Of a stretch of DNA of 64,000 bases, positions 36,505-51,875 are shown piece by piece. Origin of the DNA: Candidatus Woesebacteria bacterium (GTDB taxonomy: Bacteria > Patescibacteriota > Microgenomatia > UBA8517); the NCBI GenBank assembly GCA_013374855.1, contig CP055308.1, forward strand, positions 661,310 to 725,309. The letters run 5' to 3'. How positions within the stretch are numbered: position 1 is the stretch's first letter; each line of letters begins with the position of its first letter. The notes beneath the pieces were generated by a model, which had not been told where the DNA came from, ran no database searches, and saw only the letters and a list, made by a program, of their open reading frames with translations. The translations under genes and the position numbers were made by a program.

Positions 36505-36518
36505 ATCCAAAAAGCACT

Positions 36519-37667
36519 ATGCCAAGAGTAATAAAAGGAGAGAAAATACCTATAAAACTTTGGCTTGATAAAATTGATCCATTAACACTTGAGCAAGCTA
36601 AAAATCTAGCAAACCTTCCTTACGCTTATAAGTGGATAGCCTTAATGCCTGATGCCCACCCCGGTTACGGTATGCCAATAGGTGGGATTCTTGCCACAAC
36701 GGATGTAATAGTTCCCAATGCTGTGGGAGTAGACATAGGATGTGGTATGAGAGCAGTAAAAACAGATGTTAAAGAATTAAGTAAAGAATCACTTATTAAA
36801 ATACTAAGAGAAATAAGAAAAACAATCCCCACAGGTTTTGCACACCATAAAACAAAACAAAATTGGATTGGATTTTCAAAAGCTCCAGAAGTTGAGATCA
36901 TACAAAAAGAGCTAGACAAAGCACATTACCAAATAGGAACACTTGGAGGCGGTAATCACTTTATAGAAATATTAAAAGATGAAAACTCGTACATTTGGCT
37001 TATGGTACATTCAGGAAGCAGAAACTTTGGCTTAAAAACTGCTGAATTTTTCTACAATAAAGCTTTAAAATTTTGTCAGGAAAAAGATATAAAACTACCA
37101 ACCATAGAACTTTCCTTTCTGCCCATCGACAGCAAGATTGGAAAAGAGTATTTTGAGTCTATGAATTATTGCCTTGAATTTGCACAAGCCAACAGGAAGT
37201 TAATGATGCAAAGGCTAAAAGAAATTGTAAATGAAGAAACAGGATGTGGTTTTATCGAAGAAATCGATGTGCATCATAACTACGCAAGTCTAGAGAACCA
37301 CTTTGGCAAAGATGTTTTCGTGCATCGTAAAGGAGCAATAAATGCTGAAAAAGGAAAAATAGGAATTATTCCCGGCTCTATGGGTACACCAAGCTACATA
37401 ACAGAAGGGAAGGGTAATCCCGAAAGCTTTAACTCTTCATCTCACGGAGCAGGAAGAAAGCTTGGCCGTCGAGAAGCTACAGAAAAACTTAATCTGAAAA
37501 AAGAGCAAAAGAAAATGAAAGACATCATTGGAAAACCTAGGCAAAAAAAGGAGCTAGAAGAAGCACCAGGTGCTTACAAAGATATAGAAAAGGTAATGGA
37601 AAAACAAAAAGACTTGATTACTCCCAAAGTTAAACTAAAACCCCTTGCTGTTGTAATAGGTATATAA
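36519..37667 (+). CDS. rtcB: RtcB-family RNA ligase (short form)
   Basis: DAHPGYGMPIGG, GCGMR, GGGNHF and HSGSR motifs in RtcB order. Confidence 0.75.
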   Translation: MPRVIKGEKIPIKLWLDKIDPLTLEQAKNLANLPYAYKWIALMPDAHPGYGMPIGGILATTDVIVPNAVGVDIGCGMRAVKTDVKELSKESLIKILREIRKTIPTGFAHHKTKQNWIGFSKAPEVEIIQKELDKAHYQIGTLGGGNHFIEILKDENSYIWLMVHSGSRNFGLKTAEFFYNKALKFCQEKDIKLPTIELSFLPIDSKIGKEYFESMNYCLEFAQANRKLMMQRLKEIVNEETGCGFIEEIDVHHNYASLENHFGKDVFVHRKGAINAEKGKIGIIPGSMGTPSYITEGKGNPESFNSSSHGAGRKLGRREATEKLNLKKEQKKMKDIIGKPRQKKELEEAPGAYKDIEKVMEKQKDLITPKVKLKPLAVVIGI

Positions 37668-38192
37668 CTATAACTTAAAAATTTCTAATACTCTGTAAGA
37701 AGCTCCATTTTTTGATAACTTTGATTCAAAAATGACAATTTCCTTTAACTTTTCCTTAAAGAAAACTGGCTCTTCAAAATGCAAAAGAGATCTACCTTTT
37801 CCAAACCTAGCAAGAGTTATGTGGGGAATAAGATTTCTCCTTTCTTTTTTCAGATTCAATTTCTCAATTAAAGTATTTCTAAAATTTTCCAATTGAACAA
37901 TTATTTTGCCCTCTAACCACAAAATACGAGGATTCTTCTTATCAGGAGCAGACTTTATACTAACAAAATCGACCTCAAAATTATAAAAAATTTGTTCATC
38001 TAAAAAATTAGACAATAATAATACTATTCTTTTTATTTCATCTTCATACCAAGGAGGAATTAATGTCATATGAAGATTATTTGGGCTAACAAATCTAACA
38101 AAATCGGGAAATTTTTTCTGTTTTTGCCAGTTAGTTATATAACTTACCAGATTTTCTGATAATTTAAAACCAATAAAAATCCGTTTCTTCAT
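37668..38192 (-). CDS. thpR: RNA 2',3'-cyclic phosphodiesterase (2H family, LigT/ThpR)
   Basis: Two H-x-T-x motifs (LHMTLIPP and PHITLARF). Confidence 0.7.
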   Translation of the reverse strand: MKKRIFIGFKLSENLVSYITNWQKQKKFPDFVRFVSPNNLHMTLIPPWYEDEIKRIVLLLSNFLDEQIFYNFEVDFVSIKSAPDKKNPRILWLEGKIIVQLENFRNTLIEKLNLKKERRNLIPHITLARFGKGRSLLHFEEPVFFKEKLKEIVIFESKLSKNGASYRVLEIFKL

Positions 38193-38234
38193 AATTATTG
38201 CCTTTATTCCAATTATAAAATAAACTAAGATTAA

Positions 38235-39629
38235 ATGGAGTTGGCAAAACTAAAAATCAAAAATCTACCCAGCCCAATCCCCTTCAAAAAACTACTTGGG
38301 CCAAGTTTTATTCTTCTTGGGTTAGGGCTTGGAAGTGGAGAGATAATACTTTGGCCATATCTTTCCTCAAAATATGGAATGGGAATTATTTGGGGAGCAA
38401 TAATAGGTATTACTTTTCAATTCTTCATTAATATGGAAATAGAAAGATACACCTTGGCAAGAGGGGAGAGTGTGTTTGTGGGAATAGCAAGAAAGATTGG
38501 GAAACTTTCACCCTTATGGTTTCTTTTATCTACCCTTATCCCGTGGATGTGGCCGGGAATTATAGCAACCTCTGCAAAAATATTAAGTTTTCTTTTCAAC
38601 AAAAGCTACAATCCAGTAATTCCATCAATAATGCTTATTACAATAGGATTAATACTAACTCTAGGCCCCGTTGTATATAAAACTCAGGAAACATTACTCA
38701 AAATTTTAATTCTTATAGGAATTCCACTAATAATTATTATTACCATTTCGCTTGCAAAACCAGAAAAATTAACAGATCTTCTTTTGGGAATTTTAGGTAA
38801 AGGAGATAACTTTTGGTTAATTCCCAAAGGAATTTCAATTGCTACATTTCTTGGAGCATTAGCCTATGCAGGAGCCGGAGGAAACTTAAATTTGGCTCAA
38901 AGTTTCTATGTTAAAGAAAAGGGTTATGGTATGGGAAAATTTTCAGGCAGAATCACAAGCGTTCTTACAGGCAAAAAAGAAGATATTAAGATAACTGGTT
39001 TTAAATTCCCGCTAAACAAAACGAATCTCAAAAAATTTAACATTTGGTGGAAAAACATAAATCTAGAACACGCAATTGTCTTCTGGGCAACAGGGGCTTT
39101 TACAATGGTGATTTTAAGCTTCTTATCATTTTCAACACTTTACAATAGTGGCACAGACCTACAAGGAGTAGATTTTATAATCAAGGAAAGCCAAATGATA
39201 GGAAAAAAAATACTCCCTTTTGCAGGAACAATTTTCTTAAGCCTTTGTGCCATTATGCTTTACTTCACACAATTTTCGGTCCTTGACGCAACATCAAGAA
39301 TAGCAAGCGAAAATCTATTGATTCTTTCAAAAAAACAGGCATCAATACTGCCTAAATTCTATTATTCTTTCCTGTGGCTCCAAATAACAATTGGTGTCTT
39401 AATTATAAATTTTGTTTTTAACGAGCCATTTTTATTACTTATCATCAGTGCTGTACTTAACGCCTTTACTATGTTCGTATATAGTGCACTGCTCCTATGG
39501 CTAAACAACACTTCGCTTGAAAAACCAATAAGACCAAGTTTTCTGAGAAAATTAGCAGTATTCTCAGCTTTCACCTTTTATGGAATATTCAGTTTTATTA
39601 CAATATTCCAATTTGTCTTCAGAAAATAG
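38235..39629 (+). CDS. Nramp-like multi-pass membrane transporter
   Basis: N-terminal LGPSFILLGLGLGSGEI...YGMGIIWG...MEIERYTLARGES follows the Nramp LGPGF..DPGN..LLW..Q.LSARLG pattern with substitutions in the DPGN metal motif. About 11 TM helices. Confidence 0.5.
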   Translation: MELAKLKIKNLPSPIPFKKLLGPSFILLGLGLGSGEIILWPYLSSKYGMGIIWGAIIGITFQFFINMEIERYTLARGESVFVGIARKIGKLSPLWFLLSTLIPWMWPGIIATSAKILSFLFNKSYNPVIPSIMLITIGLILTLGPVVYKTQETLLKILILIGIPLIIIITISLAKPEKLTDLLLGILGKGDNFWLIPKGISIATFLGALAYAGAGGNLNLAQSFYVKEKGYGMGKFSGRITSVLTGKKEDIKITGFKFPLNKTNLKKFNIWWKNINLEHAIVFWATGAFTMVILSFLSFSTLYNSGTDLQGVDFIIKESQMIGKKILPFAGTIFLSLCAIMLYFTQFSVLDATSRIASENLLILSKKQASILPKFYYSFLWLQITIGVLIINFVFNEPFLLLIISAVLNAFTMFVYSALLLWLNNTSLEKPIRPSFLRKLAVFSAFTFYGIFSFITIFQFVFRK

Positions 39630-39630
39630 A

Positions 39631-40629
39631 ATGAAAAAACTAATATTACTCATTATTTTTACAACTTTAGCAATAGCAACAATTATGCACTTCTATAAAC
39701 CCAAAAGGGATTCCAATTCTTTCAAAGAAACTAAGGAAAACAAAGATACCTACATGTACAGATATGCCATCGAGGAAATGCAAAACTACAAAATCAAAGA
39801 GGGAAAAATAGAAATTAAAGAGACAATAGAAGAAAAAGATAGTTTTACAAGTTTTTATTTTGAATTCTTTTTCAATCCAAATTTAGATGGAAGGACTATC
39901 AAGAAAACAAGCGGTATGATAAACATTCCCAAAGATGAAGGAAGATTTCCAATAGTCATAATGATAAGAGGATATGTTGACCCAAAAGATTACAAAACAG
40001 GAACAGGTTCAAAAAACTTAAGCTACTTTCTAGCAGAAAGAGGTTTTATAACCATATCACCAGACTTTTTAGGTTACGCACAATCTGACAAAGAAGCAGA
40101 AAACATATTTGAGACAAGATTTCAAACATACACAACAATAATTTCTCTGATTGAATCTGCCTTCCAAATTGAAAAATGGGATAGAAAAAATCTTTTTATT
40201 TGGGGTCACTCAAACGGAGGACAGATTGCGCTATTCGTACTTGAATCTACCAAAAAAGACATACCAACGGTTCTCTGGGCACCAGTTTCTGCTCCTTTTC
40301 CTTATTCAATTCTATATTACACAATTGACTCTGAGGATAAAGGAAAATTTATCAGAAAAGAACTAGCTAAGTTTGAAGAAAATTACGATACTGATAAATT
40401 CTCAATAACCAACTATTTTGACAGAATAAACACAAAAATAGAAATACATCAGGGAGGAAAAGATGATTCAGTACCTTCAAGATGGTCAGAAAAATTATAT
40501 AAAACACTCATTGCCCTTAAAAAAGACGTAAAGTACTATTTTTATCCAGAATCAGACCACAATTTAAGGCCCAATTGGAATGAAGTAGCACTTAAAACTT
40601 TTGAATTTTATAAAAATTTGACAAAATAA
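39631..40629 (+). CDS. secreted alpha/beta hydrolase (S9 peptidase/esterase-like)
   Basis: Signal peptide from internal MKKLILLIIF. Nucleophile elbow GHSNGG, with catalytic Asp and His positioned downstream. Confidence 0.6.
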   Translation: MKKLILLIIFTTLAIATIMHFYKPKRDSNSFKETKENKDTYMYRYAIEEMQNYKIKEGKIEIKETIEEKDSFTSFYFEFFFNPNLDGRTIKKTSGMINIPKDEGRFPIVIMIRGYVDPKDYKTGTGSKNLSYFLAERGFITISPDFLGYAQSDKEAENIFETRFQTYTTIISLIESAFQIEKWDRKNLFIWGHSNGGQIALFVLESTKKDIPTVLWAPVSAPFPYSILYYTIDSEDKGKFIRKELAKFEENYDTDKFSITNYFDRINTKIEIHQGGKDDSVPSRWSEKLYKTLIALKKDVKYYFYPESDHNLRPNWNEVALKTFEFYKNLTK

Positions 40630-40652
40630 AAAGAGAGTTTAATAATTAAAAT

Positions 40653-40991
40653 ATGAAAATTATTACAAGATTGGCAATAAATGTTTTTACTCTTTACATA
40701 GTAGAATACGTGGTACCAGGTTTTAAACTTTCAGGTATATGGTCAGCAACTGTCGCTGCAATAGTCATAGGTATTGCCAACACTTTCATAAGACCAATAC
40801 TTCAGATAATAACACTGCCTATCTCAATAATAACTTTTGGATTGTTTGCTTTGCTTATCAATGTATCGCTACTTTACGGAGCAAGCCTTTTGGTACCAGG
40901 CTTTGAAATAGAAAATTTTCTAACTGCAATTATTGCTTCCATTGCTCTTTCTCTTGTGTCTTGGTTTTTAGCACGTCTTGCTAAAGACTAA
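40653..40991 (+). CDS. multi-pass membrane protein, PF04020 (phage holin 4_2)-like; paralog of 21853..22257
   Basis: Four TM helices, with a conserved FIRPILQIITLPISIITFGLFALLINV region. Confidence 0.5.
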   Translation: MKIITRLAINVFTLYIVEYVVPGFKLSGIWSATVAAIVIGIANTFIRPILQIITLPISIITFGLFALLINVSLLYGASLLVPGFEIENFLTAIIASIALSLVSWFLARLAKD

Positions 40992-40992
40992 C

Positions 40993-41148
40993 ATGGCAAA
41001 AACTTTCATAAAGAAAAAAGCAGGACACAATCAATCAGGACCTAAATACAGAACACCTGATTTCTTTAAAGGAAAATTAGCATCAAAAATACCGTCAACC
41101 AGTACAAAATTTAACCCCGCCAGATTTCGAATTCAGCACAAAGGATAG
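40993..41148 (+). CDS. hypothetical small basic protein (51 aa)
   Basis: ORF MAKTFIKKKAGHNQSGPKYRTPDFFKGKLASKIPSTSTKFNPARFRIQHKG, lysine-rich and not in the ORF track. No homology recognised. Confidence 0.2.
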   Translation: MAKTFIKKKAGHNQSGPKYRTPDFFKGKLASKIPSTSTKFNPARFRIQHKG

Positions 41149-41190
41149 TTTCGGCTTGCAAAATAATCTCAAAAGCATATAATAACCCCT

Positions 41191-42081
41191 ATGGCCAAAA
41201 AACAAAAAGAGGAGAAAATATCAAAAACTATTGCAAAAACTCAAGACCAAACCATACAAATTACATTCAATATTCCTCGAGAAGAAATTAAGCGTACAGA
41301 AAAAAAAATATTAGAAGAAATAGGCAAAAATCTAACTATTCCAGGGTTTCGACAGGGAAAAGCCCCGCTCACAAAAGTAAAAGAAAACACAAGCAAAGAG
41401 AAAATTATTGAAAGGATACTATCCTTACTCGTGCTCCCAGAACTGGCTAAAGTATTTGAAGATGAAAATATAAAACCTGTAGTTTACCCAAAATTTGAGC
41501 TGATTTCAGTAAAAGATGGGGAGGATTGGCAGATTAGAGTAACAACTTGTGAAATGCCAGAGGTCGTACTTGGGGAGTACAAAAAGGAGATAATCAATCA
41601 ACTAAAGCCAGAAAAAATATGGACTCCCAACAAAAAAAACGAAGAGAAAAAGGAGGAAACAAAAGAAGAAAAAGAAGCAAAAGTTCTTGAGATTCTCCTA
41701 AAAACCGTTAAGGTAGAGATACCAAAATTGCTAATAGAAGAAGATGTTGAAACAAGACTTTCCCAACTTCTTGCACGTCTTGAGAAACTGGGTCTCACAT
41801 TGGAAAAATATTTAGAATCAGTAGGGAAAACAGCACAAGAACTAAGAGAAGAATATGAAAGTCAAGTACGAGAATCTCTAATTTTAGAACTTGCATTAAC
41901 CAAAATAGGCAATGAGGAAAAAATTACAGTTGGAGATCAAGAAGTGCAAGAGCTAATAAATGCATCATCCATCAGCCAAGAGGAGGCAGAAAATCTAATT
42001 AAAGATGAAGGAAGAAAAGAAATCATAAGAAATATAATCCTGCGAAGAAAAGCACTAGACTTTTTGACTTCCTTAGTATAA
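41191..42081 (+). CDS. tig: trigger factor lacking the PPIase domain
   Basis: N-terminal ribosome-binding domain with GFRQGKAP signature and C-terminal chaperone arm. At 296 aa there is no room for an FKBP domain. Confidence 0.65.
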   Translation: MAKKQKEEKISKTIAKTQDQTIQITFNIPREEIKRTEKKILEEIGKNLTIPGFRQGKAPLTKVKENTSKEKIIERILSLLVLPELAKVFEDENIKPVVYPKFELISVKDGEDWQIRVTTCEMPEVVLGEYKKEIINQLKPEKIWTPNKKNEEKKEETKEEKEAKVLEILLKTVKVEIPKLLIEEDVETRLSQLLARLEKLGLTLEKYLESVGKTAQELREEYESQVRESLILELALTKIGNEEKITVGDQEVQELINASSISQEEAENLIKDEGRKEIIRNIILRRKALDFLTSLV

Positions 42082-42120
42082 AGGTATAAAATAACTCTAC
42101 CAAATTTCTGCCCAAAAAAA

Positions 42121-42729
42121 ATGGCCGCCAATAAGAAAAACCAAGGGCAAACAATCAAAAATCAAATAGAAAACATAAAGGAAGATAGCCCTTCTTTGCC
42201 TCAATTTCCTATAAAAGACCCTTTAGAAATTCTTCAAGAAGTATTAGGAACAAACACCATACAGGAAAAACCCACAAGAAGAGAGTTCCGCCCCGGGGAG
42301 TCTATTGATATAGCAAAAATATTAACCAATAAAGAAAACACCCAAAATATAACAAAAAGAAAAGAAAATAGATTCATATTTGCCGAAGAAAAAAAAGAAG
42401 ACGAGAGAAAGATGGCAATCCTAAGGATGCAACTTGAGCAAATAATAAGAGAGGTAAAAATACTTGCTCAATCAACAAAATCTGTAGAAGAACAAATTAA
42501 AGCCATTCCAGATCAAACTCCTCAAGAACCAGGTATTTATCATATTGGTTTTTTTGAAGAAATATTAAAATTAGTAAAAAATGCAAGAAAAAAAATAGAA
42601 GAAGCCTCTGTCTGGCTTTCCTTTGCCACAAACCGAGCACAAAAGAAAAACTACTGGGCAAGATACAAAAAGGGTGGGGCAAGTTTCCTACTTTCCCCAG
42701 ATCATTACCTCACAAGATCCGCAGGATAA
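42121..42729 (+). CDS. hypothetical protein
   Basis: 202 aa, charged and coiled-coil-like, no motif recognised. Confidence 0.3.
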   Translation: MAANKKNQGQTIKNQIENIKEDSPSLPQFPIKDPLEILQEVLGTNTIQEKPTRREFRPGESIDIAKILTNKENTQNITKRKENRFIFAEEKKEDERKMAILRMQLEQIIREVKILAQSTKSVEEQIKAIPDQTPQEPGIYHIGFFEEILKLVKNARKKIEEASVWLSFATNRAQKKNYWARYKKGGASFLLSPDHYLTRSAG

Positions 42730-42783
42730 ACTTGTTGATAAGGTTTGCATAATACTAAATTTTGACTTAAAATATTTTTGTCC

Positions 42784-42857
42784 GGACGGTTAGCTCAGTT
42801 GGTTAGAGCGTTCGCTTGACGTGCGAAAGGTCGGGGGTTCGAGTCCCTCACCGTCCA
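42784..42857 (+). tRNA. tRNA-Val (anticodon GAC)
   Basis: Acceptor GGACGGT/ACCGTCC, anticodon loop TTGACGT, T-loop GGGGGTTCGAGTCCCTC. Confidence 0.85.
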
Positions 42858-42863
42858 CAAAAA

Positions 42864-42940
42864 GGGCCCGTAGCTCAGTTGGCTAGAGCGCTTGGCTGGC
42901 AGTCAAGAGGTCAGGGGTTCGACCCCCCTCGGGTCCACCA
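42864..42940 (+). tRNA. tRNA-Ala (anticodon GGC) with encoded CCA; 3' end is the junction of an integrated element
   Basis: Acceptor GGGCCCG/CGGGTCC with the G3:U70 Ala identity pair, anticodon loop CTGGCAG, T-loop AGGGGTTCGACCCCCCT. The last 6 nt (CCACCA) are shared with repeat A1. Confidence 0.85.
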
Positions 42941-44437
42941 AAGTTGATTTGCCGCCTCGCTCGGCGCTTCGCGCCTCGCTTCGGTGGGCATTTCATACAG
43001 ATAATTCCAAGGTTTTTTGAACGCAACGGACAGCGCACCCGCCGCAAGGCGGCGGTTCGAGCCGATGGTTTTGAGAAAATTTTTCATCTCCGAAAAATTT
43101 TCTTCCAAAATAAGATTTTTGGCTTGGCTGGCTGATAAAATCCAGTTTCTGGTGAGTTCGAGCCAACGATTTCCATTTCGCTCAAAATCAAATAATTTTT
43201 CCTCTAAAGTTTCCTTTTCGCTCATTAGAGCGTTTTTCTTTTGCTGAAATTCTAAAAGCTCCAAAGCGCCTGCAAGGTAGGCATCGGTCAATCTTTCCAG
43301 CTTCTTTTTAACGTTGTTGATTTTCTCTTTAAGATTTTGAGCGAAAAGATCCGATGTTTGGCGGTTCTTCTTTTCCCATTCTTTTAATTTATTCAAATAT
43401 CTTTCCCGCCAAACATCGGGTAGAGAAACTTTTTGACAGTACTCTTTTACTTGTTCGGCTAATTTTTCCTCCCGCAAAAAGCGGCTTTGGGTGCACTTCA
43501 TTGTTTTGCTCTTTTTGGTACAGCGGTAATAGACAAACTCAAGTCCGCTTTTCTTGATGTGCCTTTCTGCCGTTATGGAATAGCCGCACTCTCCGCATTT
43601 TGCGAAATTCAAAAACAGAAATTCTTTTTTCTCTTTCCGCTTTTTGCGGGGCTTGCCGTTGTCTTTTAACGCCTGCTGTATTTTGTCAAAAAGTTTTTTT
43701 GAAATCATTGGCTTGTGACTGCCTTGATGCAGTTCTCCTCGGTAGTAAAACATCCCATAGTAAAAAGGATTTTTCAAAATCTTTTCAATAGACGACAAAG
43801 CCAGCGGCTTGCCGTCCCTGCCAGCCAAGCCAAGGGAAAACATTTTGCACTGAATAGAAGTGAGTGTATATCTGCCAGTGGCAAATTCCTCTAAAATTTT
43901 CTTTACCTTTTTGAAGGTTTTGGGATCCGGCTCTATTGTCCGCAGTCTCGGCTCGTTGAAGTAGCCGAGAGGCGCCTTTGCCGGCAGTTCTCCGCGCCTC
44001 AGCTTCTGTCTTATCCCGCGCAAAATGTTTTCCCGCAAATTGTCGGTGTAGTATTTTGCCTGCCCGAAGGCGACAGAGAGCATAAACTTGCCCTGCGGAG
44101 TCGGCTCAAACCAGAAAGTAGGGAATTTCAGCGATTGGATTTTTCCGGTATCCACAAGGTAGATAATTCTTCCGCCGTCTATGCTGTTTCTTGCCAGCCG
44201 GTCGGGATTCCACGCTAAAATTCCCTGCGCGCCGCCTTTTTCTATTTCATTAAGCATTTGATTGAAGACAGGTCTTCCCGGCTCTTTGGCGGTCTGGCTT
44301 TCGGTGTATTCGCGGACAATAAAGAGGTTATGTTCTCTGGCGTATTCCCGCAGTTCGGCAAGCTGGGCTTCAATAGACAAAATCTGCCTTTCTTCCTCTT
44401 CTGTAGATTTTCGGCAGTAGATGAGGTATTTAATCAT
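42911..44437 (-). CDS. large serine recombinase (resolvase catalytic domain, recombinase domain, zinc ribbon, coiled coil)
   Basis: YCRKSTEEEERQILSIEAQ catalytic serine region, DRLARN, PLGYF, C-x2-C...C zinc ribbon, C-terminal coiled coil. Gene body is ~50% GC against a ~35% host. The last ~49 codons run through repeat A1 and stop inside tRNA-Ala, so the true C-terminus is uncertain. Confidence 0.85.
   Translation of the reverse strand: MIKYLIYCRKSTEEEERQILSIEAQLAELREYAREHNLFIVREYTESQTAKEPGRPVFNQMLNEIEKGGAQGILAWNPDRLARNSIDGGRIIYLVDTGKIQSLKFPTFWFEPTPQGKFMLSVAFGQAKYYTDNLRENILRGIRQKLRRGELPAKAPLGYFNEPRLRTIEPDPKTFKKVKKILEEFATGRYTLTSIQCKMFSLGLAGRDGKPLALSSIEKILKNPFYYGMFYYRGELHQGSHKPMISKKLFDKIQQALKDNGKPRKKRKEKKEFLFLNFAKCGECGYSITAERHIKKSGLEFVYYRCTKKSKTMKCTQSRFLREEKLAEQVKEYCQKVSLPDVWRERYLNKLKEWEKKNRQTSDLFAQNLKEKINNVKKKLERLTDAYLAGALELLEFQQKKNALMSEKETLEEKLFDFERNGNRWLELTRNWILSASQAKNLILEENFSEMKNFLKTIGSNRRLAAGALSVAFKKPWNYLYEMPTEARREAPSEAANQLWWTRGGSNP
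42935..43058. repeat. inverted repeat A, copy 1 (124 bp, identical to reverse complement of 44570..44693)
   Basis: Identity verified base by base. About 60% GC, with hairpins GGCGC-TTC-GCGCC and CCGCCGC-AAG-GCGGCGG (43039..43055). Begins with CCACCA of the tRNA-Ala 3' end. Confidence 0.9.
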
Positions 44438-44569
44438 AGCTTTGGTATTAAATTATTGATAAAGGCGGCGCGCACACCGACAATTTGCTAATCTCATTTT
44501 GGCTTTCGCCGAAGGCGAAAGAAAAATCATCGGCTCTTGCGGCTTCGCCGCAATACAAACTTTGTTTGT

Positions 44570-44693
44570 GAACCGCCGCCTTGCGGCGGGTGCGCTGTCC
44601 GTTGCGTTCAAAAAACCTTGGAATTATCTGTATGAAATGCCCACCGAAGCGAGGCGCGAAGCGCCGAGCGAGGCGGCAAATCAACTTTGGTGG
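44570..44693. repeat. inverted repeat A, copy 2 (124 bp)
   Basis: Reverse complement identical to 42935..43058. Shares 4 bp (GTGG, reverse complement CCAC) with repeat B1. Confidence 0.9.
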
Positions 44694-44915
44694 TGTCTGC
44701 TGGAAAAAGTTAGAACCTTCTACCAGCAAAACCCTGACGCTGACTGATTGCCGCCCGCAGGGCGGCAATCCCGCCCAGCGGCTCGCTACTGCCTGACGGC
44801 TGCAGGCAAAACCCGAAAAATTTCTTTTTCTTTTAATAGGCGCGCGCAAAAAATTTTTTCAATTAAGGAAACAATTTTTGCGGGTTTTGCTTCCTTGCTG
44901 ACGCAAGGACGAGCT
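44690..44915. repeat. inverted repeat B, copy 1 (226 bp, identical to reverse complement of 50155..50380)
   Basis: Identity verified base by base. GC-rich, with hairpins matching those in copy 2. Confidence 0.9.
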
Positions 44916-45012
44916 TGTATTTTTTAGTCGCCCTTGTCCCACCCAACCCAACGCGGGCGACAACAAGGAACTCCCTTGATAATTTCTGTGGACAAAAGAT
45001 TTCAAATAAGTT

Positions 45013-45068
45013 ATCATTATAGTAGAAAGAATACACACTTTATAAAATAATCTATATACTATAATGAT
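45013..45068. promoter_or_regulatory. 12 bp perfect inverted repeat (ATCATTATAGTA ... TACTATAATGAT) bracketing the promoter region of the HTH controller gene; candidate operator (C-box-like)
   Basis: Arms at 45013..45024 and 45057..45068 are exact reverse complements with a 32 bp AT-rich spacer. The ATG of the HTH gene lies 9 nt downstream. Confidence 0.45.
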
Positions 45069-45076
45069 AAACAATA

Positions 45077-45286
45077 ATGAAAATTATGTCAAATAGAATT
45101 TCTGAAAACTTAAAGAAGCTACGAGATAAAAAGGGCTATTCTCTTGAAAAGGTGGCTCGTCTTGCTGATTTATCGCTTAATACTATTGTTAAAATAGAGA
45201 ACGGAGTAAATCAAAATCCCACAATAGAAACATTAACTAAAATCGCCAGAGCATTAGAAGTTGGTGTAGATGATTTAATTAAATAA
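45077..45286 (+). CDS. XRE-family HTH regulator (restriction-modification controller, C-protein-like)
   Basis: 69 aa; HTH_3 pattern LRDKKGYSLEKVARLADLSLNTIVKIENG...IETLTKIARAL. First gene of the methyltransferase-containing operon. Confidence 0.7.
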   Translation: MKIMSNRISENLKKLRDKKGYSLEKVARLADLSLNTIVKIENGVNQNPTIETLTKIARALEVGVDDLIK

Positions 45287-45288
45287 CT

Positions 45289-46518
45289 ATGAAAAATTTT
45301 CAACCAATAACAAAAAAATTATTTCCTGCTGATTATCAGTTAATTGATGGAACTGATGAAATTTTTGAGTTAAATTTTGCTTTTTGGGAATATGAAAATC
45401 TTAATAAAAAAGATTTAATTAGACGCAGTGCCTATTTTAAATCAATAGAAGGCGAACCAACGATTCACTACCAAACTTGTAATCTTCAAAATTTAGAAGA
45501 TATACACCGCAATAGTTCTTTACGCACAAAAGCCTTTTTCTTAAATGGTAAATATTCTACAGGATACGCCACTCATAGTTTATTCCCATATAGGGGCAAA
45601 TTTCATCCACAGATGATAAGGGTTTTACTAAATATGATGAGTCTAAAACCGGGTAATGTTGTTCTTGATCCAATGTCTGGTAGTGCGACTTTATCAGTAG
45701 AGGCAAATTTGTTAGGTATTGATTCAGTGGGTGTCGATGTAAGTCCTTTTTGTTGTTTGATAGGCAGAGTAAAAACTTTTGCCTTAAATCTTAACGGCGA
45801 GAAACTTATCCAAATAACCAAAGAGCAGAATAAAATTTTTGAGAAGTTAAATAAGAATAAAGTACCGCATTATTTTATAAAAGATAGCGACGATGAAGAT
45901 AGGTCATACTACGAAGTTGCTTTATTAGCCTATCTTGACGCTGTAGGTTTTGCGCGCAGAAGCTCTAAATCAGTAAGCACTCTTTTCCCGATCGTGCTTA
46001 ATAGGTATATAACAACTATCAAAAATTTCCAAAATGCAAGAGAAAAACTGGGTCTAAGAATAGGAAAAAGTAAAATTATTGAGGATAGTGCGTTAAAATT
46101 ACCCCTGGAAGATAATAGCGTTGACGGCGTAATTACCTCTCCGCCTTATTCTTTTGCAATAGATTATGTAGATAATGATAGACCACAATTGGAATATCTT
46201 GGCTATGTCCCAGAAAAGTTAAAAGAAAATATGATTGGTTTGCAGGGTAGAGAAATAAGTCAAAAATTGGAACTTTATTTTGAAATGCTTGATAAAGTAT
46301 TTAGAGAATTGGCAAGAGTTAGTAAAAAAGGCAGCAAAACTATTTTTGTGGTTGGAACTAATGATATTCAGACAAAAGGTGTCAGATTGGAGACGAAAAT
46401 TAAGGAACTAGCAGAAGGGCAAAAGTTTAAATTTCTTTTTGAAATTTTGAAACCAATTAAAGGTCTCCAAAATACGATGAAGGAAGAATATATTTTAATT
46501 TTTGAAAATAACAAATAA
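45289..46518 (+). CDS. DNA methyltransferase (amino-MTase, N6-adenine or N4-cytosine; motif I then SPPY)
   Basis: FxGxG-like DPMSGSATL followed by catalytic ITSPPYSF. Confidence 0.75.
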   Translation: MKNFQPITKKLFPADYQLIDGTDEIFELNFAFWEYENLNKKDLIRRSAYFKSIEGEPTIHYQTCNLQNLEDIHRNSSLRTKAFFLNGKYSTGYATHSLFPYRGKFHPQMIRVLLNMMSLKPGNVVLDPMSGSATLSVEANLLGIDSVGVDVSPFCCLIGRVKTFALNLNGEKLIQITKEQNKIFEKLNKNKVPHYFIKDSDDEDRSYYEVALLAYLDAVGFARRSSKSVSTLFPIVLNRYITTIKNFQNAREKLGLRIGKSKIIEDSALKLPLEDNSVDGVITSPPYSFAIDYVDNDRPQLEYLGYVPEKLKENMIGLQGREISQKLELYFEMLDKVFRELARVSKKGSKTIFVVGTNDIQTKGVRLETKIKELAEGQKFKFLFEILKPIKGLQNTMKEEYILIFENNK

Positions 46519-47521
46519 AAATATGATTATAATTTCAAAACCCACAACTGAATCAAAATTTAAGCTGGTTATAGATAAAAATACCTTTTATCTTTACGAC
46601 CGTGACTTTGAGGAAAAATACGAGGGCTATATTTCTTCAATCAAAGAATTACTTTTAGTATTGCGAAATAAAGTCTCAACAGAAGGACTTAAAAAAGACT
46701 TTTTTGTTGAATTAATCCGCAATAAGAAAAACGGCTTACGAGCACTACTTGCATTGACTGGTATCTCAAATGAATATTTAAAACGCTTAATAACTCTAAT
46801 AAGAGTGATTGACGATGAGGAATTAAACAGGATTACATTGAAAGATAAATGGCAAATAGGAGCAGAAGAAATTGATGAGGGAGGAGTTAGTGAATGGAGC
46901 GACTCAAAGATTGCTAACCTAATAAAGAGCAATGAAAACTTTGCGAAAGGAATTATAAATATATTTTTTGAGGGCTCTACCGTTCCTGTGCTAACTCAAG
47001 CCCTGCCTTTATTTGAACTTAAAAAGCTAAGCGTTGAAAAGCTGGAATTTAAAATAGAATCTCTTGTTGATACTTTAATACGCTACAAAGAGAAAGGATC
47101 GTATGCTGGTAAAAAAGAAAATAACCCAGAGGTCCTTATTGAGAAAATTTTAGAGGAACTTGAAATACCATATACTTCTGGAGATCTACAAAAATTAGTT
47201 GGTGTGCTGGATGAAGAAAAACGAACAATGGATTTTATTATTCCCGATCAGGATAATCCATTATTGATTGTCGAGTCTTCTTATGTTGTAACCACTTCCT
47301 CTGGCCAAGGAGATAAAGCAAAAACAGAGATAAATGTTGCTAAACTCATCAAAAAGTATTATCCCAAAGCTCTATTTATTGGTTTTGTGGATGGTATCGG
47401 TTGGTATGTAAGAAAAAACGACCTTAAAAGAATGGTTGGAGCTTATGATGAAGTCTTTACTTTTCATAAAGAGGAACTTAATCGCTTTAAAGAGTTGTTA
47501 TCAACCGTATTCAACAAGTAG
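46502..47521 (+). CDS. candidate restriction endonuclease (PD-(D/E)xK-like C-terminal core)
   Basis: Sits between two MTase genes downstream of a controller gene. C-terminal MDFIIPDQ...LIVESSYVV...GDKAK resembles a PD..E.K nuclease core. No confident family match from sequence alone. Confidence 0.3.
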   Translation: MKITNKNMIIISKPTTESKFKLVIDKNTFYLYDRDFEEKYEGYISSIKELLLVLRNKVSTEGLKKDFFVELIRNKKNGLRALLALTGISNEYLKRLITLIRVIDDEELNRITLKDKWQIGAEEIDEGGVSEWSDSKIANLIKSNENFAKGIINIFFEGSTVPVLTQALPLFELKKLSVEKLEFKIESLVDTLIRYKEKGSYAGKKENNPEVLIEKILEELEIPYTSGDLQKLVGVLDEEKRTMDFIIPDQDNPLLIVESSYVVTTSSGQGDKAKTEINVAKLIKKYYPKALFIGFVDGIGWYVRKNDLKRMVGAYDEVFTFHKEELNRFKELLSTVFNK

Positions 47522-47523
47522 TT

Positions 47524-48444
47524 ATGGCTAAAGATATTAAAAAATTTGAGAACAAAATTATTCTAGGCGATTGTTTAGAAGTAATGAAAGATATCCCTGA
47601 CAATTCAGTGGATATGACTTTTGCTGACCCACCTTTTAACCTAAAGAAAAAATATAACCACTATGAGGACACAAAAGAAAAAGAGGAGTATTTAGAATGG
47701 TGCAATAAATGGATGAACGAGATGGTGAGAATTACAAAACCAAGCGGATCTATTTTTGTTCATAATATTCCCCGTTGGTTGTCGCATTTTGCCGAGTACC
47801 TAAACAAAATCGCCTATTTTAGGCATTGGATTACTTGGGATTCCGGTGGTGCACCAATGGGCAAGACGCTTTTACCGAATCACTATGGGATTTTATATTA
47901 CACAAAATCAAAATCATACAAGGATTTTAAGTTTTATGACATTAGATATCCACATCCACGCTGTCGTGTCTGTAAGGAGTTTTTGAAAGATTATGGGGGC
48001 AAAAAGGATCAAGCACATGGCTTCGGCCCTCTTCTCTCTGATGTATGGTCAGATATTCACAGAATCCGTCATAAAAAACGAAGAGACGAACATCCTTGTC
48101 AATTGCCTGTTCCATTGTTAGAAAGACTTATCTTGATGAGTACTGATGAAGGAGATATTGTGTTTGATCCATTTATTGGCACAGGCACAACTGCTGTTGC
48201 GGCTAAGCATCTGGGGAGAAAGTATATTGGGATAGATATTGACCCACAGTATATAAAAATCACAGAAAAAAATCTAAAACAAGCAAAAGAGACAAAAGTA
48301 AATGGCTGTTATGTATCTGTCTATCTTGGTGAAATTCGCACAATGAGAGACAAAGATTTTAAAGAGATATGGAAAAACAAAGAGGAAAATTTGAAACTAT
48401 TAGATAACAAAATGTACAAATTAAACAAAAGATTTGATTTGTGA
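47524..48444 (+). CDS. DNA methyltransferase, beta-class N6A/N4C (DPPF then FxGxG)
   Basis: N-terminal catalytic FADPPFNL and C-terminal motif I DPFIGTGTTAVAA. Confidence 0.8.
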   Translation: MAKDIKKFENKIILGDCLEVMKDIPDNSVDMTFADPPFNLKKKYNHYEDTKEKEEYLEWCNKWMNEMVRITKPSGSIFVHNIPRWLSHFAEYLNKIAYFRHWITWDSGGAPMGKTLLPNHYGILYYTKSKSYKDFKFYDIRYPHPRCRVCKEFLKDYGGKKDQAHGFGPLLSDVWSDIHRIRHKKRRDEHPCQLPVPLLERLILMSTDEGDIVFDPFIGTGTTAVAAKHLGRKYIGIDIDPQYIKITEKNLKQAKETKVNGCYVSVYLGEIRTMRDKDFKEIWKNKEENLKLLDNKMYKLNKRFDL

Positions 48445-48459
48445 AATTACAAGAATTCT

Positions 48460-50124
48460 ATGAGTAGGGTTTTATTAAGAAAGTTAACAATTAAAAATTT
48501 AGGACCGATCAAAGAAGATGAGGTTTTTTTCAATGAATTTACTTTTTTTGTCGGGAGAAACAACGCCGGAAAATCACATTATCTGAAGGCAATTGAACTA
48601 TTGCTGTCTACTGGAATAAGGAAGGAGCATATTCCAAAATGGCAACATGACAAAGATAAACCGATAGTTTTAAAGGGCGAATTTACTGGAGTTAGTGATT
48701 TTACTCATTTAGTAAAGGTTAGTAATCACAAAGAGGCGATAGAAAACGCTATTGATAATGGTGTTTTGAAGATTGCCTCTGTACTAACTCCGGAGGCGGG
48801 TGTTCAGATTGGTATTTATAAAGAAGATGGTACTTTACACAATCCAAGTGGTTTTACAGGAAATTTATTAAAAATTCTTCCAGATGTTATATCGATTCCA
48901 GCTACTGCAGATACTGTGCAAGAATTAGCTGATAAATCTACAACAGCATTGGGAAAATTAAAAAAAGAAGTAATGAGCTCTTTCTTTCAAGAATTAGCTG
49001 TTAAAACAAAATCTGTTTTAACAGATTTGGACAATTTCCTCCATAGCGAAGAAGAGGGAGTACGTTCTAAAGCAATTACAGAGTTTGAGGCTGGGTTAAA
49101 GGAAGAATTTATGGGTGAATTTAGTGATATTACACCATTTGTTGAATTTGGCTTACCAGACGAAACTGTTATTGCAAAAGAGATGAAGATCTTCCTTGAT
49201 GACGGACATAAAACAGAAGTGGAGCAGAAAGGGCATGGCCTACAGAGAGCAACATTATTAGCTTTTTTGAAGTTATTAGCTAAAAAAGGTAAAAGATATC
49301 AAGATCGTCCTGCACCAATGTTTATAATTGGAGAATTAGAATCTTTTCTTCATCCGTATGCTCAACGTGAGATGGCAAATGCTTTAATCCAAATGATGGA
49401 GCGTTATCAGATAGTAACAACTACACATTCACCTTTCATTGTTACACCAACAACTATTGAGGGCTATCGAAGAGTAAGAAAAACTAAAGATGAAGGAACC
49501 AAAAATATCGCTCTCAATCCATCCAGCGTTGATGTAAGTTTAATTAAACGACACCTTGAGCGTCGTGGAAATCTTGAAGGATTATTTGCTGACAGAGTTG
49601 TTTTAATTGAAGGTAGTCATGACGAGAATTTTTATGAAAAATTAAAAATCATTTTTAATATTCATCCTCCAAAAGGAAAATTTACTCTTTTCATTAAAGC
49701 CGATGGCAAAAAGCAATTAAGATTGGCGAGGAAATTCTATCAACAAATGTGTTTTGATGATATTGCTGTGATATGTGATTTAGATTATTTATTTAGTCGT
49801 GATATAGAATATCTGCTTGAAGAATTTGGATTGAATAAAGAATTACCCCAACAATTTCGTGAACACATTGATTGCCAAGACGATTGTGATCCAAAACTAG
49901 ATTATATAGCTCAAAAATTAGAAGAAAAAGGAACACCTGATGATTTTGATGATTTGATCCGGAATTTACAGGATAAACGATTTTTTGTGTTGCGACATGG
50001 CGCGCCGGAAATGTATTATAAACATAACAAAGGGGAAAAGAATGGTTGGAATAACATTAACTCAGAAGATGATTTATTAGAGTCTGATTATTTGAAAGAA
50101 CTGATGAAATCGGTTTTAATGTAA
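48460..50124 (+). CDS. OLD-family ATP-dependent nuclease (ABC-type ATPase + C-terminal Toprim), standalone
   Basis: Walker A GRNNAGKS, Walker B/D-loop FIIGELESFLHP, TTHSPFIV, and C-terminal Toprim VVLIEGSHDENFYE...DLDY. No adjacent helicase. Confidence 0.7.
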   Translation: MSRVLLRKLTIKNLGPIKEDEVFFNEFTFFVGRNNAGKSHYLKAIELLLSTGIRKEHIPKWQHDKDKPIVLKGEFTGVSDFTHLVKVSNHKEAIENAIDNGVLKIASVLTPEAGVQIGIYKEDGTLHNPSGFTGNLLKILPDVISIPATADTVQELADKSTTALGKLKKEVMSSFFQELAVKTKSVLTDLDNFLHSEEEGVRSKAITEFEAGLKEEFMGEFSDITPFVEFGLPDETVIAKEMKIFLDDGHKTEVEQKGHGLQRATLLAFLKLLAKKGKRYQDRPAPMFIIGELESFLHPYAQREMANALIQMMERYQIVTTTHSPFIVTPTTIEGYRRVRKTKDEGTKNIALNPSSVDVSLIKRHLERRGNLEGLFADRVVLIEGSHDENFYEKLKIIFNIHPPKGKFTLFIKADGKKQLRLARKFYQQMCFDDIAVICDLDYLFSRDIEYLLEEFGLNKELPQQFREHIDCQDDCDPKLDYIAQKLEEKGTPDDFDDLIRNLQDKRFFVLRHGAPEMYYKHNKGEKNGWNNINSEDDLLESDYLKELMKSVLM

Positions 50125-50154: not shown

Positions 50155-50380
50155 AGCTCGTCCTTGCGTCAGCAAGGAAGCAAAACCCGCAAAAATTGTT
50201 TCCTTAATTGAAAAAATTTTTTGCGCGCGCCTATTAAAAGAAAAAGAAATTTTTCGGGTTTTGCCTGCAGCCGTCAGGCAGTAGCGAGCCGCTGGGCGGG
50301 ATTGCCGCCCTGCGGGCGGCAATCAGTCAGCGTCAGGGTTTTGCTGGTAGAAGGTTCTAACTTTTTCCAGCAGACACCAC
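50155..50380. repeat. inverted repeat B, copy 2 (226 bp); right end of the island ends in CCAC
   Basis: Identical to the reverse complement of 44690..44915. Internal hairpins CCTTGC-GTCA-GCAAGG (50162..50177) and TTGCCGCCC-TGC-GGGCGGCAA (50302..50322), plus an 18 bp arm pair 50180..50197 / 50248..50264. Confidence 0.9.
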
Positions 50381-50449: not shown

Positions 50450-51286
50450 ATGCAAAAAATAAATACTTTAAATACCAAGAGTCAAACTGAAGCCGTTGGG
50501 CAGAATACTCAACCTTATTTTTTATCAAAAAATATAGTTATCTATAACGAGGACTTCCTTAAAATTAAAAAAATCCCAATATCTTCAGTAGATCTAATTG
50601 TAACTTCACCACCCTACAATGTTGATATCCATTATAATTCTCACAATGACAATTTATCATATAACAATTATTTAGAATTTACTACCAAATGGCTCAAAAA
50701 GTGTCTAGAAATAACAAAAAATGATGGAAGGCTTTGCCTAAACATTCCCCTTGATAAAAACAAAGGTGGGCAACAATCTGTCTACGCAGATGTAACCCAC
50801 ATCGCAAAAGAGGTGGGTTGGCGATATCATTCAACAATAATTTGGAACGAAGGAAACATTTCAAGAAGAACTGCTTGGGGATCTTTTAAGTCTGCATCAG
50901 CACCTTATGTTATTGCTCCAGTTGAAACAATTGTAATTCTCTATAAAAAATATTGGAAAAAAACAAGCGGAAGCAAAATTAGCGACATATCCAAAGAGGA
51001 ATTTATGGAGTGGACAAATGGAGTATGGACTTTTAGTGGAGAAAGTAAAAAACGCGTAGGGCACCCCGCACCTTTTCCAATAGAATTACCTAGAAGATGC
51101 ATAAAATTATTTAGTTTTGTAAATGATACTGTTTTAGATCCATTTGTAGGTAGTGGTACCACTCTTCTAGCAGCCAACTCTCTTAATAGGAAAGGAATAG
51201 GTGTTGATATAGATAAAGAATATTGCAATTTAGCCATTAAGAGATTGAGGAAAGAAGCAAAAATACACCAAGCAAGTTTATTATAA
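50450..51286 (+). CDS. DNA methyltransferase, beta-class N6A/N4C
   Basis: VTSPPYNV catalytic motif then DPFVGSGTTLLAA motif I. Lies just outside the island's right repeat. Confidence 0.8.
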   Translation: MQKINTLNTKSQTEAVGQNTQPYFLSKNIVIYNEDFLKIKKIPISSVDLIVTSPPYNVDIHYNSHNDNLSYNNYLEFTTKWLKKCLEITKNDGRLCLNIPLDKNKGGQQSVYADVTHIAKEVGWRYHSTIIWNEGNISRRTAWGSFKSASAPYVIAPVETIVILYKKYWKKTSGSKISDISKEEFMEWTNGVWTFSGESKKRVGHPAPFPIELPRRCIKLFSFVNDTVLDPFVGSGTTLLAANSLNRKGIGVDIDKEYCNLAIKRLRKEAKIHQASLL

Positions 51287-51287: not shown

Positions 51288-51875
51288 ATGTCAAAGAACA
51301 AGAAAACAATCGGAGACTTGATAAAAGAATATTTCAAGAAGCATGCAAAGCAAGATATGCAGCATGGCCCTGTAGTTGATTGGGTTGAAGAACAATATCT
51401 AAGAATTTATGGTCGAAAACCAAGAGATATATGGCGTAGCATACGTAGCCTGCACGAGCAAGGTTTCCTTATAAAAGTTAAAAAAGGTGTCTACCGGTAT
51501 GATCCTGAAAAAATCAAAAGAAGAAAACTAAAAGACTTTACAACAAAACAAAAGGTGCAAATACTAGAACGTGATGGATACAAATGCGTGATATGTGGAA
51601 GAGGTAAAAAAGAGGGAGTCGAATTACATGTTGACCATATAAAACCTAGGTATCTTGGAGGTAAATCCACAATAGAAAACGGACAAACATTATGTGCCCA
51701 ACACAACTTTATCAAGAAAACTCTAAATCAAACTGAGACAGGAAAGAAAATGTTCATTAGGCTGTATGATTTAGCAAAGAAGGAAAAAAATGAAAAGATA
51801 CAAAAATTTTGTTCCGACATACTTGAAATCTACGAAAAGTATAGAATAAACGGACACATAAAATGGGAAAAGTAG
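51288..51875 (+). CDS. HNH endonuclease (candidate type II restriction enzyme partner of the preceding MTase)
   Basis: C-terminal HNH motif (CVICG...HVDHIKPRYLGG...N...LCAQHN). ATGA overlap couples it to the upstream MTase gene. Confidence 0.65.
   Translation: MSKNKKTIGDLIKEYFKKHAKQDMQHGPVVDWVEEQYLRIYGRKPRDIWRSIRSLHEQGFLIKVKKGVYRYDPEKIKRRKLKDFTTKQKVQILERDGYKCVICGRGKKEGVELHVDHIKPRYLGGKSTIENGQTLCAQHNFIKKTLNQTETGKKMFIRLYDLAKKEKNEKIQKFCSDILEIYEKYRINGHIKWEK

Follow-up and report, generated by a model that had tools for sequence, protein, structure and literature searches.

A predicted DpnII/BanI-like restriction-modification operon with a candidate portable head module in a serine-integrase island of Candidatus Woesebacteria

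Among the type II restriction-modification (R-M) systems, MboI has the gene order methylase-nuclease-methylase (M-R-M), and DpnA has a single-strand role. LlaDCHI is related to DpnII (PMC4190342). Other systems, represented by PvuII, AhdI, and Esp1396I, encode a small protein consisting only of a helix-turn-helix (HTH) domain as the first product of an operon and carry conserved sites just 5′ of its gene (PMC2175313, PMC2504287). The canonical site of such controller (C) proteins, the C-box GACTnnnAGTCnnnnGACTnnnAGTC, is composed of two adjacent dyads within ~35 bp, and the operator sequences of Esp1396I are GACTTATAGTC and GATTATAGTC (PMC2504287). Classically, the C gene shares its transcript with the nuclease gene but not with the methylase gene (PMC5282649). 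Two further, non-canonical controllers are relevant to the comparison: HsdC of the Mollicutes, which have AT-rich genomes, binds (GTGTTAN5)2 direct repeats (PMC5282649), and C.Kpn2I binds downstream of the promoter, where it acts as a roadblock (PMC6237814). A locus that resembles both groups is found in a 64,000-nt stretch of a Candidatus Woesebacteria genome (contig CP055308.1, positions 661,310 to 725,309 of the forward strand), hereafter the window, in which all coordinates are given; L001-L107 are the labels of the relative loci that were compared. From its sequence, the region 45086-48444 is best described as an intact, horizontally mobile type II R-M operon with a nuclease of a widespread, uncharacterised subfamily.

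Open reading frame (ORF) analysis places five genes on the + strand at 45077-50124, in the order HTH-M1-R-M2-OLD and with intergenic gaps of 2, 4, 2, and 15 nt. The HTH gene (45086..45286) encodes an XRE-type, C-like regulator of 66 amino acids (aa); its start at ATG 45086 is the one kept in relatives, and an alternative start at 45077 would give 69 aa. M1 (45289..46518) encodes a predicted amino-methyltransferase of 409 aa, R (46523..47521) a predicted type II restriction endonuclease of the DpnII/BanI superfamily of 332 aa, and M2 (47524..48444) a beta-class N6_N4 DNA methyltransferase of 306 aa. For R, a longer frame had been listed from a TTG at 46502 (46502..47521, 339 aa), a start that the homologues do not use; ATG 46523 fits all of them. 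The last cargo gene, OLD (48460..50124), encodes a 554-aa protein with an N-terminal ABC-type ATPase and a C-terminal TOPRIM domain (Pfam AAA_15, 98.3 bits, and OLD-like_TOPRIM, 28.1 bits; PADLOC Old, 221.6 bits), the architecture of P2 Old and the class 1 OLD nucleases. Unlike P2 Old, this OLD gene closes an R-M operon and adjoins the right repeat of an island. An OLD gene is likewise carried by L001, and in L105 a different OLD homologue (28% identical) occupies the same position of another cargo. The OLD gene belongs to the same cargo as the R-M genes. A preliminary description of this DNA had proposed an operon of an XRE-type HTH gene, an SPPY methylase, a nuclease, and a DPPF methylase with tight junctions, and all four ORFs and both motifs are found, separated by gaps of 2, 4, and 2 nt. 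Its extent of 45013-48444 holds for these four genes but misses the co-oriented OLD gene 15 nt further on.

The assignment of R draws on Pfam, Foldseek, and conserved residues. Residues 203-316 align with positions 169-270 of the 278-position Pfam PF04556 (DpnII) profile at 29.4 bits, above the gathering cut-off of 23 bits. RE_BanI is matched weakly, and representatives of the wider family of R match DpnII, BanI, or both. The NCBI name of a 90%-identical protein is 'DpnII family type II restriction endonuclease'. R thus appears to represent a distinct subfamily between the DpnII and BanI families, with the catalytic domain that is common to them. In the AlphaFold2 model, the N-terminal half is all-helical, and a β-β-β-α-β core is seen at 218-290. 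The top PDB match of this model in Foldseek is BstEII (9ibq; E 4.8e-4, probability 1.0), followed by the subunits of BbvCI (6m9g; E 5e-3, probability 0.84) and by EcoO109I as a weak, lower-ranked match (1wtd; E 0.59, probability 0.30). These enzymes compare with R at template modelling (TM) scores of 0.2-0.37 and 10-15% identity, so their specificity is not transferable. A direct search of the R sequence against the PDB gave no significant match (Ecl18kI at E 0.05), and a plasmid search gave no R homologue. In 50 full-length R representatives, E84, D237, K265, D290, G291, W294, and R297 are conserved at 84-100% (D237 at 94%, K265 at 84%), and all are present here. E251, also present here, is aligned in most of 12 diverse members that were displayed and falls below the 80% listing threshold in the 50 representatives. 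The modelled core, together with these acidic and lysine residues, is consistent with a PD-(D/E)xK nuclease in which the lysine is displaced from its usual ExK position. Two points weigh against the assignment of R: the DpnII match is confined to residues 203-316 at 29 bits, and the model is mediocre (predicted local distance difference test, pLDDT, 69.7; TM 0.32-0.37). The preliminary description had called this product a 339-aa candidate PD-(D/E)xK nuclease and had named in advance a profile search for a nuclease fold as the check that could refute it. That search returned the DpnII match, 29.4 against 23 bits, and the homology to restriction nucleases stands on Pfam DpnII, Foldseek, and D237/K265, with the length revised to 332 aa.

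The two methylases differ in class. M2 matches Pfam N6_N4_Mtase at 179.5 bits and carries motif IV (DPPF) near its N terminus and motif I (FDPFIGTGTT) near its C terminus, the order of the beta class. Its nearest solved relatives in the PDB are M.MboIIA, CcrM, and M.RsrI; a D12 match of 30 bits and the match to the PDB entries of DpnA (E 3e-18) are both confined to the motif I region. M2 therefore has the features of a DpnA-like, beta-class second methylase. In M1, motif I (VLDPMSGSAT) precedes TSPPY, and a helical insert of ~100 aa lies between them, an alpha-like order. M1 passes the Pfam cut-offs of N6_N4_Mtase (47.2 bits) and UPF0020 (39.6 bits) and matches many PADLOC models of type II methylases (MTase_II at E 1e-26). 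The nearest fold to its AlphaFold2 model (pLDDT 81.7) in Foldseek is that of archaeal Trm11, and M1 can be described as Trm11/UPF0020-like. D12 is not among its Pfam matches, so M1 is not a Dam-like D12 partner of the DpnII kind. Public records label M1 homologues 'TRM11 family methyltransferase' or 'tRNA G10 N-methylase'. This naming is probably a mis-annotation, because M1 homologues hold a fixed place in R-M operons, and by its genomic position M1 is taken to be a DNA methylase.

As in DpnII, MboI, and LlaDCHI, a single nuclease with a Pfam DpnII-family catalytic domain is combined here with two methylases of different classes, one of them of the beta class like DpnA and M.MboIB, and one methylase appears dispensable; the gene order M-R-M is that of MboI. 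In contrast to DpnII and MboI, the DpnII match is weak (29 bits) and involves the C-terminal domain only, M1 is Trm11/UPF0020-like rather than a Dam-like D12 enzyme, it is the beta-class enzyme that always accompanies R, and an HTH gene heads the operon. The suggestion of a DpnII-like system in the preliminary description thus holds for the catalytic domain of R and fails for M1.

R is widespread, with 2890 homologues in a large protein collection and 387 loci in a scan with one genome per species. Copies that are 90-98% identical occur in Patescibacteria, Bacteroidales, and Anaerohalosphaeraceae, and copies of ~64% identity occur in an Asgard archaeon. The R of L016, a locus of Thermodesulfatator autotrophicus S606, is 68% identical. 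Six island proteins were mapped on 80 loci kept from the 387, from bacteria and archaea and with R at least 60% identical. M1-R-M2 is contiguous in ~59 of the ~67 loci in which both flanks are readable, across many phyla. In eight loci, R and M2 occur without M1, and the gene upstream is instead that of a delta-aminolevulinate dehydratase (ALAD), an SNF symporter, a glycosyltransferase, or a DUF3800 protein; among the loci with a readable downstream flank, none is without M2. Since R always comes with M2 and sometimes dispenses with M1, we infer that M2 is a sufficient and obligatory protector and that M1 is an accessory present in most relatives. The HTH gene is present in only ~20 of ~65 cassettes with a readable upstream flank and is facultative in the cassette, as controller genes usually are. 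In several relatives, a GmrSD-type modification-dependent (type IV) nuclease gene is inserted between R and M2 (L016 2349-4004, L018 6984-8672, L071 4171-5853, and L040 2279-3937). For GATC, the observed/expected ratios of the window (0.70) and of the pooled host flanks (0.59) indicate a mild depletion, in figures that have no control set.

The HTH protein is a plain XRE/HTH_3 domain (Pfam, 58.8 bits). In PADLOC, the capH and HTH_VI models score above Control_protein (E 4.7e-9), and in the PDB, C.BclI (E 4e-4) ranks behind SinR- and DdrO-type domains. Similar to PvuII, AhdI, and Esp1396I, a small HTH-only protein is encoded first in the operon, on the same strand and 2 nt before M1, with conserved sites just 5′, and as in C-protein systems generally, the regulator moves as a module between different R-M systems. 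Unlike in PvuII, AhdI, and Esp1396I, the C gene precedes the methylase without a separate methylase promoter region, and its head module leads non-R-M cargoes too. Rather than being co-transcribed with the nuclease and not with a methylase, the C gene stands in the order C-M1-R-M2 with 2-4-nt junctions.

Just 5′ of the HTH gene lies an inverted repeat with the arms ATCATTATAGTA (45013-45024) and TACTATAATGAT (45057-45068). The preliminary description had given these as perfect 12-bp arms 32 bp apart, and they are exact, but the perfect repeat is longer: it reaches 14 of 14 nt (45011-45024 / 45057-45070) with a spacer of 32 nt, and 23 nt at 87%. In a first-order Markov simulation, perfect 14-nt inverted repeats with a spacer of up to 60 nt are expected 0.05 times per 64 kb, and shuffling the local 120 nt 300 times never gave 14 nt; 12-nt arms alone are not rare, at 0.75 per 64 kb. 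The left arm, TTATCATTATAGTA (45011..45024), overlaps the -10 element and the predicted transcription start of a candidate + strand promoter, P1, for which a promoter scan gives a 10/12 match (-35 TGGACA at 44989-44994, a spacing of 17 nt, and -10 TATCAT at 45012-45017). The right arm, TACTATAATGATAA (45057..45070), contains TATAAT at 45060-45065. This hexamer has no -35 element (1-2 of 6 positions match), which places the right arm in the leader of the predicted P1 transcript, at ~+33 to +46.

The region was compared in alignment A2, which holds 19 distinct upstream regions of this HTH subfamily, six obtained through nuclease homology and 13 through a metagenome scan that used the right-box pattern with position 45067 left free (N). 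Both arms are its most conserved, essentially invariant blocks, and the 15-20 nt between and around them vary. The left block, TTATCATTATA[G/A]TA, varies only at 45019 (A/T) and 45022 (G/A), and the right block, TCTATATACTATAATG-T-TAAACAA, contains the right arm. Position 45067 is A in the window only and T in every relative, including 18 of 18 metagenome loci. A -35-like hexamer (4-5 of 6 positions matching TTGACA; TGGACA, TTTACT, TTGACT, TTTACA, or TAGACA) is located exactly 17 nt 5′ of TATCAT in 19 of 19 sequences. Because this spacing holds in all 19 while the hexamer itself varies and a 3-nt indel intervenes, there is good evidence for P1 as a predicted promoter with its -10 element in the left arm and a start near 45024. 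Each arm contains ATTATAGT, the core common to the right operator of Esp1396I and the boxes here. When loci are selected solely by nuclease homology, both boxes together are seen in 10 of 14 loci with this HTH subfamily and in 0 of 75 others. No canonical tandem-dyad C-box (~35 bp) is present in 44900-45086. Instead of two adjacent dyads, there are two non-palindromic boxes, 32 bp apart and inverted, with conserved 10-nt cores 42 bp apart centre to centre; the operator sequences of C.Kpn2I and HsdC are unrelated. In our reading, the arms are putative composite promoter/operator boxes, and autoregulation by the HTH protein through occlusion of the -10 element and a downstream roadblock is plausible by analogy with Kpn2I.

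Several other explanations of the upstream region were discarded. A long-spaced inverted repeat as an architecture common to divergent HTH classes is not supported: of 8 distinct classes, p < 0.05 is reached only by the window, L014, and L025; the repeat of L014 has 10-nt arms and likewise a 32-nt spacer. ORFs on the minus strand that start from the left arm (52 aa in the window, 141 aa in L002, and 255 aa in L001) are not a divergent gene, because they agree over no more than their first ~25 codons, a stretch conserved already at the DNA level, past which they diverge and become low-complexity. A phage origin was likewise set aside: 26 matches of the left box in viral contigs are due to chance, all being without the right box and without the HTH gene. 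In L008 (~4300-4360), the cassette, which is without boxes, also lies ~190 nt 3′ of a tRNA 3′ end, and a 10-nt perfect inverted repeat, CAAACGATTT, with a 10-nt spacer overlaps a TTGACG -35-like hexamer there.

The HTH gene does not travel alone. At 74-93% identity, and together with the same boxes and a further element, preC, it precedes at least six other cargoes in the metagenome loci L090-L107, as compared with 44916-45286 of the window. These are a fused D12/N6_N4 methylase and a 465-aa protein followed by an OLD or AAA_13 ATPase (L093, L099, L105); an N6_N4 methylase (L095); a Ymh protein followed by an N6_N4 methylase (L107); a RadC-D12 methylase, a D12 methylase, and an AlwI-family nuclease (L106); DnaJ, TPR, DUF6804, and AbiEii proteins (L090); and an unidentified protein followed by a glycosyltransferase (L098, L101). 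preC (44928..44978, + strand) is a GC-rich conserved element with two small hairpins that is found by blastn in ~30 loci. An RNA element was rejected here: Rfam gave no match in 44400-45100 at E up to 1, and only one pair of the hairpins covaries convincingly (C:G to U:A). On the minus strand, preC reads GGG-TT-GGG-T-GGG-ACAA-GGG, a G-quadruplex-like sequence in a genome of 34% GC. A related serine recombinase is often found near the HTH head in L090-L107. The HTH gene and its promoter region form a portable head module, which fits the modularity already known for controller genes, and its distribution suggests a more general 'cargo head' role.

Two alternatives concern the enzymes. M1 could be a Trm11-like RNA methyltransferase that is merely located in the operon, as the public annotation suggests. 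Archaeal Trm11 enzymes are its best structural neighbours, the public names include 'TRM11 family methyltransferase', and there are weak NCBIfam matches to TIGR01177 and Trm14; these matches, however, are far under the cut-off (48 versus 316 bits) and cover motif I only, and no THUMP match is among the Pfam results of M1. Since M1 also matches the PADLOC type II methylase models at 1e-26, passes the Pfam N6_N4_Mtase cut-off, and lies between HTH and R or directly 5′ of R in more than 50 loci of many phyla, an RNA methyltransferase is very improbable. The other alternative, an asymmetric (type IIS-like) site of which M1 and M2 each methylate one strand, had been one of the options of the preliminary description. 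It would account for the presence of methylases of different classes (SPPY, often N4-cytosine; DPPF, usually N6-adenine), for the retention of the trio in most relatives, and for the appearance of BbvCI, a cutter of an asymmetric site, among the structural matches. The eight genomes that hold R and M2 with unrelated, housekeeping genes in the place of M1, the constant presence of M2, the single nuclease gene, and BstEII as the best structural match of R argue against it. BstEII is a homodimeric enzyme with a palindromic site. We regard strand-by-strand methylation as improbable. With M2 sufficient on its own in relatives and only one nuclease gene in the operon, the recognition site is most likely symmetric, and obligatory methylation strand by strand is disfavoured.

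The other two alternatives concern the HTH protein and its boxes, and several observations speak against an operator. The arms of relatives match at 13 of 14 positions (G-type left arm) or 12 of 14 (A-type), so that the perfect symmetry is confined to this genome, and changes in one arm are never compensated on the opposite arm; the symmetry is inherited and tolerated rather than actively maintained. Neither arm by itself is palindromic, which fits poorly with binding by an HTH dimer, and the arms resemble -10 elements (TATCAT, TATAAT), so that their conservation could serve RNA polymerase alone. HTH proteins that are only ~40% identical (L014, L019) go with boxes having TATCAT, as is more readily expected of promoter elements than of operators specific to one protein, and in L008, L009, and L012 an HTH protein of 89% identity with the same predicted recognition helix has an unrelated upstream region without an arm-like site. 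In addition, the C gene precedes M rather than R, a departure from the classical delay logic (PMC5282649), and the head module also leads cargoes that are not R-M systems (AbiEii/TPR/DnaJ; glycosyltransferase). Much of this would be expected if the arms were promoter elements only, the left being the -10 element of P1 and the right a -10-like element or second promoter, with the HTH protein binding elsewhere or not autoregulating at all; the -35-like hexamer at exactly 17 nt in 19 of 19 relatives and a near-consensus -10 hexamer in each arm point the same way. This pure-promoter explanation is a serious rival, though on balance an unlikely one: the conserved blocks of 14 and ~24 bp extend far beyond a hexamer, the TATAAT of the right arm is invariant although it lacks a -35 element, ATTATAGT, which forms the core of an operator proven for a C protein (PMC2504287), is contained in both arms, and the boxes never occur without this HTH subfamily, though plain linkage could explain the last point. 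A second possibility is that the HTH protein is a general head regulator of the cargo slot of the island, possibly linked to the divergent recombinase gene, rather than a dedicated R-M controller. At least seven types of cargo, including two that are non-R-M, stand behind the same gene and upstream region; in the window, L001, L091, L092, and L096, the module lies directly beside a serine recombinase and an attP-type repeat; and capH and HTH_VI are ahead of Control_protein in PADLOC. Against this, in hosts of Planctomycetota and Bacteroidota type the HTH gene accompanies M1-R-M2 with no recombinase in the 4-6 kb fetched on each side, and four of the six other cargo types start with DNA methylases. 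Such a role is a realistic possibility that falls short of probable, and it overlaps the reading of a dedicated controller rather than excluding it. The preliminary description, which had proposed a C-box-type operator, correctly read the enzymes and the island and overstated the case for the operator: the arms are conserved and occur only with this HTH subfamily, but the symmetry is unique and uncompensated, the left arm is a -10 element, and the layout is non-canonical.

Taken together, we consider it moderately probable, from sequence comparison, that the locus is an R-M operon with M2 as protector and M1 as accessory, transcribed from P1, autoregulated by the HTH protein, headed by a portable module, and carried as island cargo. 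In such an operon, R would cut DNA lacking modification and M2 would protect it. Transcription would probably proceed from the single sigma-70-type promoter P1, with its -10 element in the left arm, and the genes HTH, M1, R, M2, and OLD may be translationally coupled in this order through the 2-4-nt junctions; given this gene order, a methylase would be made before the nuclease. The 66-aa HTH protein would most likely autoregulate P1 by binding to both boxes. Binding to the left box would cover the -10 element and the start site, and the right box in the leader, a position that resembles the C.Kpn2I site, could serve as a roadblock or a second operator.

The operon is the cargo of a serine-integrase island. 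The integration target is a tRNA-Ala(GGC) gene (42864..42940, + strand; ARAGORN, Rfam), which contains the attL core CCAC at 42935-42938. Adjacent to it, on the minus strand, is the gene of a 508-aa large serine recombinase (42911..44437; Pfam Resolvase, Recombinase, and Zn_ribbon_recom; an NCBIfam XisF/CcrB-like match is below the cut-off), the stop codon of which is inside the tRNA gene, so that the ORF crosses attL. The P′ arm of attP, which includes the last ~40 codons of the recombinase gene, constitutes the 124-nt inverted repeat X (42935..43058) and is 100% complementary to 44570-44693. This second copy, X′, is part of an internal inverted copy of the complete attP (44570..44915), composed of X′ (44570-44693), the core GTGG (44690-44693), and Y (44690-44915). 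The inverted counterpart of Y, the 226-nt repeat Y′ (50155..50380), ends in the attR core CCAC at 50377-50380. The core contexts are ..CTCGGGT-CCAC-CAAAGTTG.. at attL and ..GCAGACA-CCAC-AAGTAAAA.. at attR, and the reverse complement of the internal copy reads ..GCAGACA-CCAC-CAAAGTTG.., a complete attP. The three sites align around the 4-nt core CCAC, as in a serine-recombinase element, and the presence of attL, attR, and a large serine recombinase at tRNA-Ala bears out the earlier proposal that the cassette is island cargo. Owing to the internal inverted attP, perfect inverted repeats flank both the recombinase gene (124 nt) and the cargo (226 nt). Similar to phage integrases, the Ccr recombinases of SCCmec, and XisF, the recombinase comprises three domains, the att core is short, and insertion is at a tRNA 3′ end. 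The main difference is the internal inverted copy of the whole attP, which brackets recombinase and cargo with perfect repeats, and no published description of this layout was found.

A related layout is observed in other loci. L001, from another Patescibacteria genome (4202-11984), has the same layout with a recombinase 50% identical to that in the window, tRNA-Pro as its target, att sites around CGACCA, and repeats of 159 nt (100%) and 353 nt (97%). The layout recurs in part in L092, with a 118-nt repeat (92%) around the recombinase, and in L105, where a repeat of 110 nt flanks another cargo. An assembly artefact as the source of the long inverted repeats was considered and rejected: the junctions need real reads, some repeats are imperfect (97%, 92%), and the assemblies are independent and involve other tRNA targets. 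Viral-contig relatives of the recombinase are few and partial. The contig of L093 contains a 2255-nt perfect fold-back (1-2255 and 8273-10527) around a cargo with this head module; here the assembler probably walked back through the inverted repeat of the cargo. In the window, the recombinase tail reads ..NQLWW-TRGGSNP, and the attP copy (42911-43058 versus 44499-44747) encodes the alternative ..NQLWW-CLLEKVRTFYQQNPDAD, which would be used if the segment flips or the element excises. A 14-nt perfect inverted repeat, CCGATGTTTGGCGG, with a 41-nt spacer lies within the recombinase gene (43351-43364 / 43406-43419). The ~19 kb upstream of the island (24198-42940) hold 15 tRNA genes, and the island is located at the last of these, tRNA-Ala, directly after tRNA-Val. 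Just beyond attR lies a resident R-M pair, a beta-class N6_N4 methylase with SPPY (50450-51286) and an HNH endonuclease (51288-51875), and 3′ of the endonuclease gene are the genes of ThrRS, IF3, L20, and PheRS.

We tentatively suggest, as a rather unlikely interpretation, that the cassette is one cargo of an undescribed Patescibacteria family of small serine-integrase islands. In these, an inverted second attP region would bracket recombinase gene and cargo each with long, near-perfect inverted repeats, every cargo slot would begin with the same hairpin-promoter-HTH head and sometimes end with an OLD gene, and the HTH protein would be the universal slot regulator. On excision, the circle would carry two attP sites in inverted orientation; if the interpretation is true, its topology would be like that of the 2-micron plasmid, and the repeats would let the element flip modules or exchange defence cargoes with other elements by recombinase-mediated cassette exchange.

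Viewed as an R-M system, the locus is of an ordinary kind; what merits follow-up is its portable head module and the double attP in the layout of the island. The R subfamily is large and uncharacterised, with 387 species-level genomes, and a specificity determined once could transfer widely. The pattern in which M2 suffices and M1 is an add-on constitutes a natural experiment with a directly testable prediction. The HTH-promoter module, found before at least seven defence cargoes, offers a compact model for safe establishment in very small genomes, and new insight is likeliest to come from the layout of the island, with its inverted internal attP.

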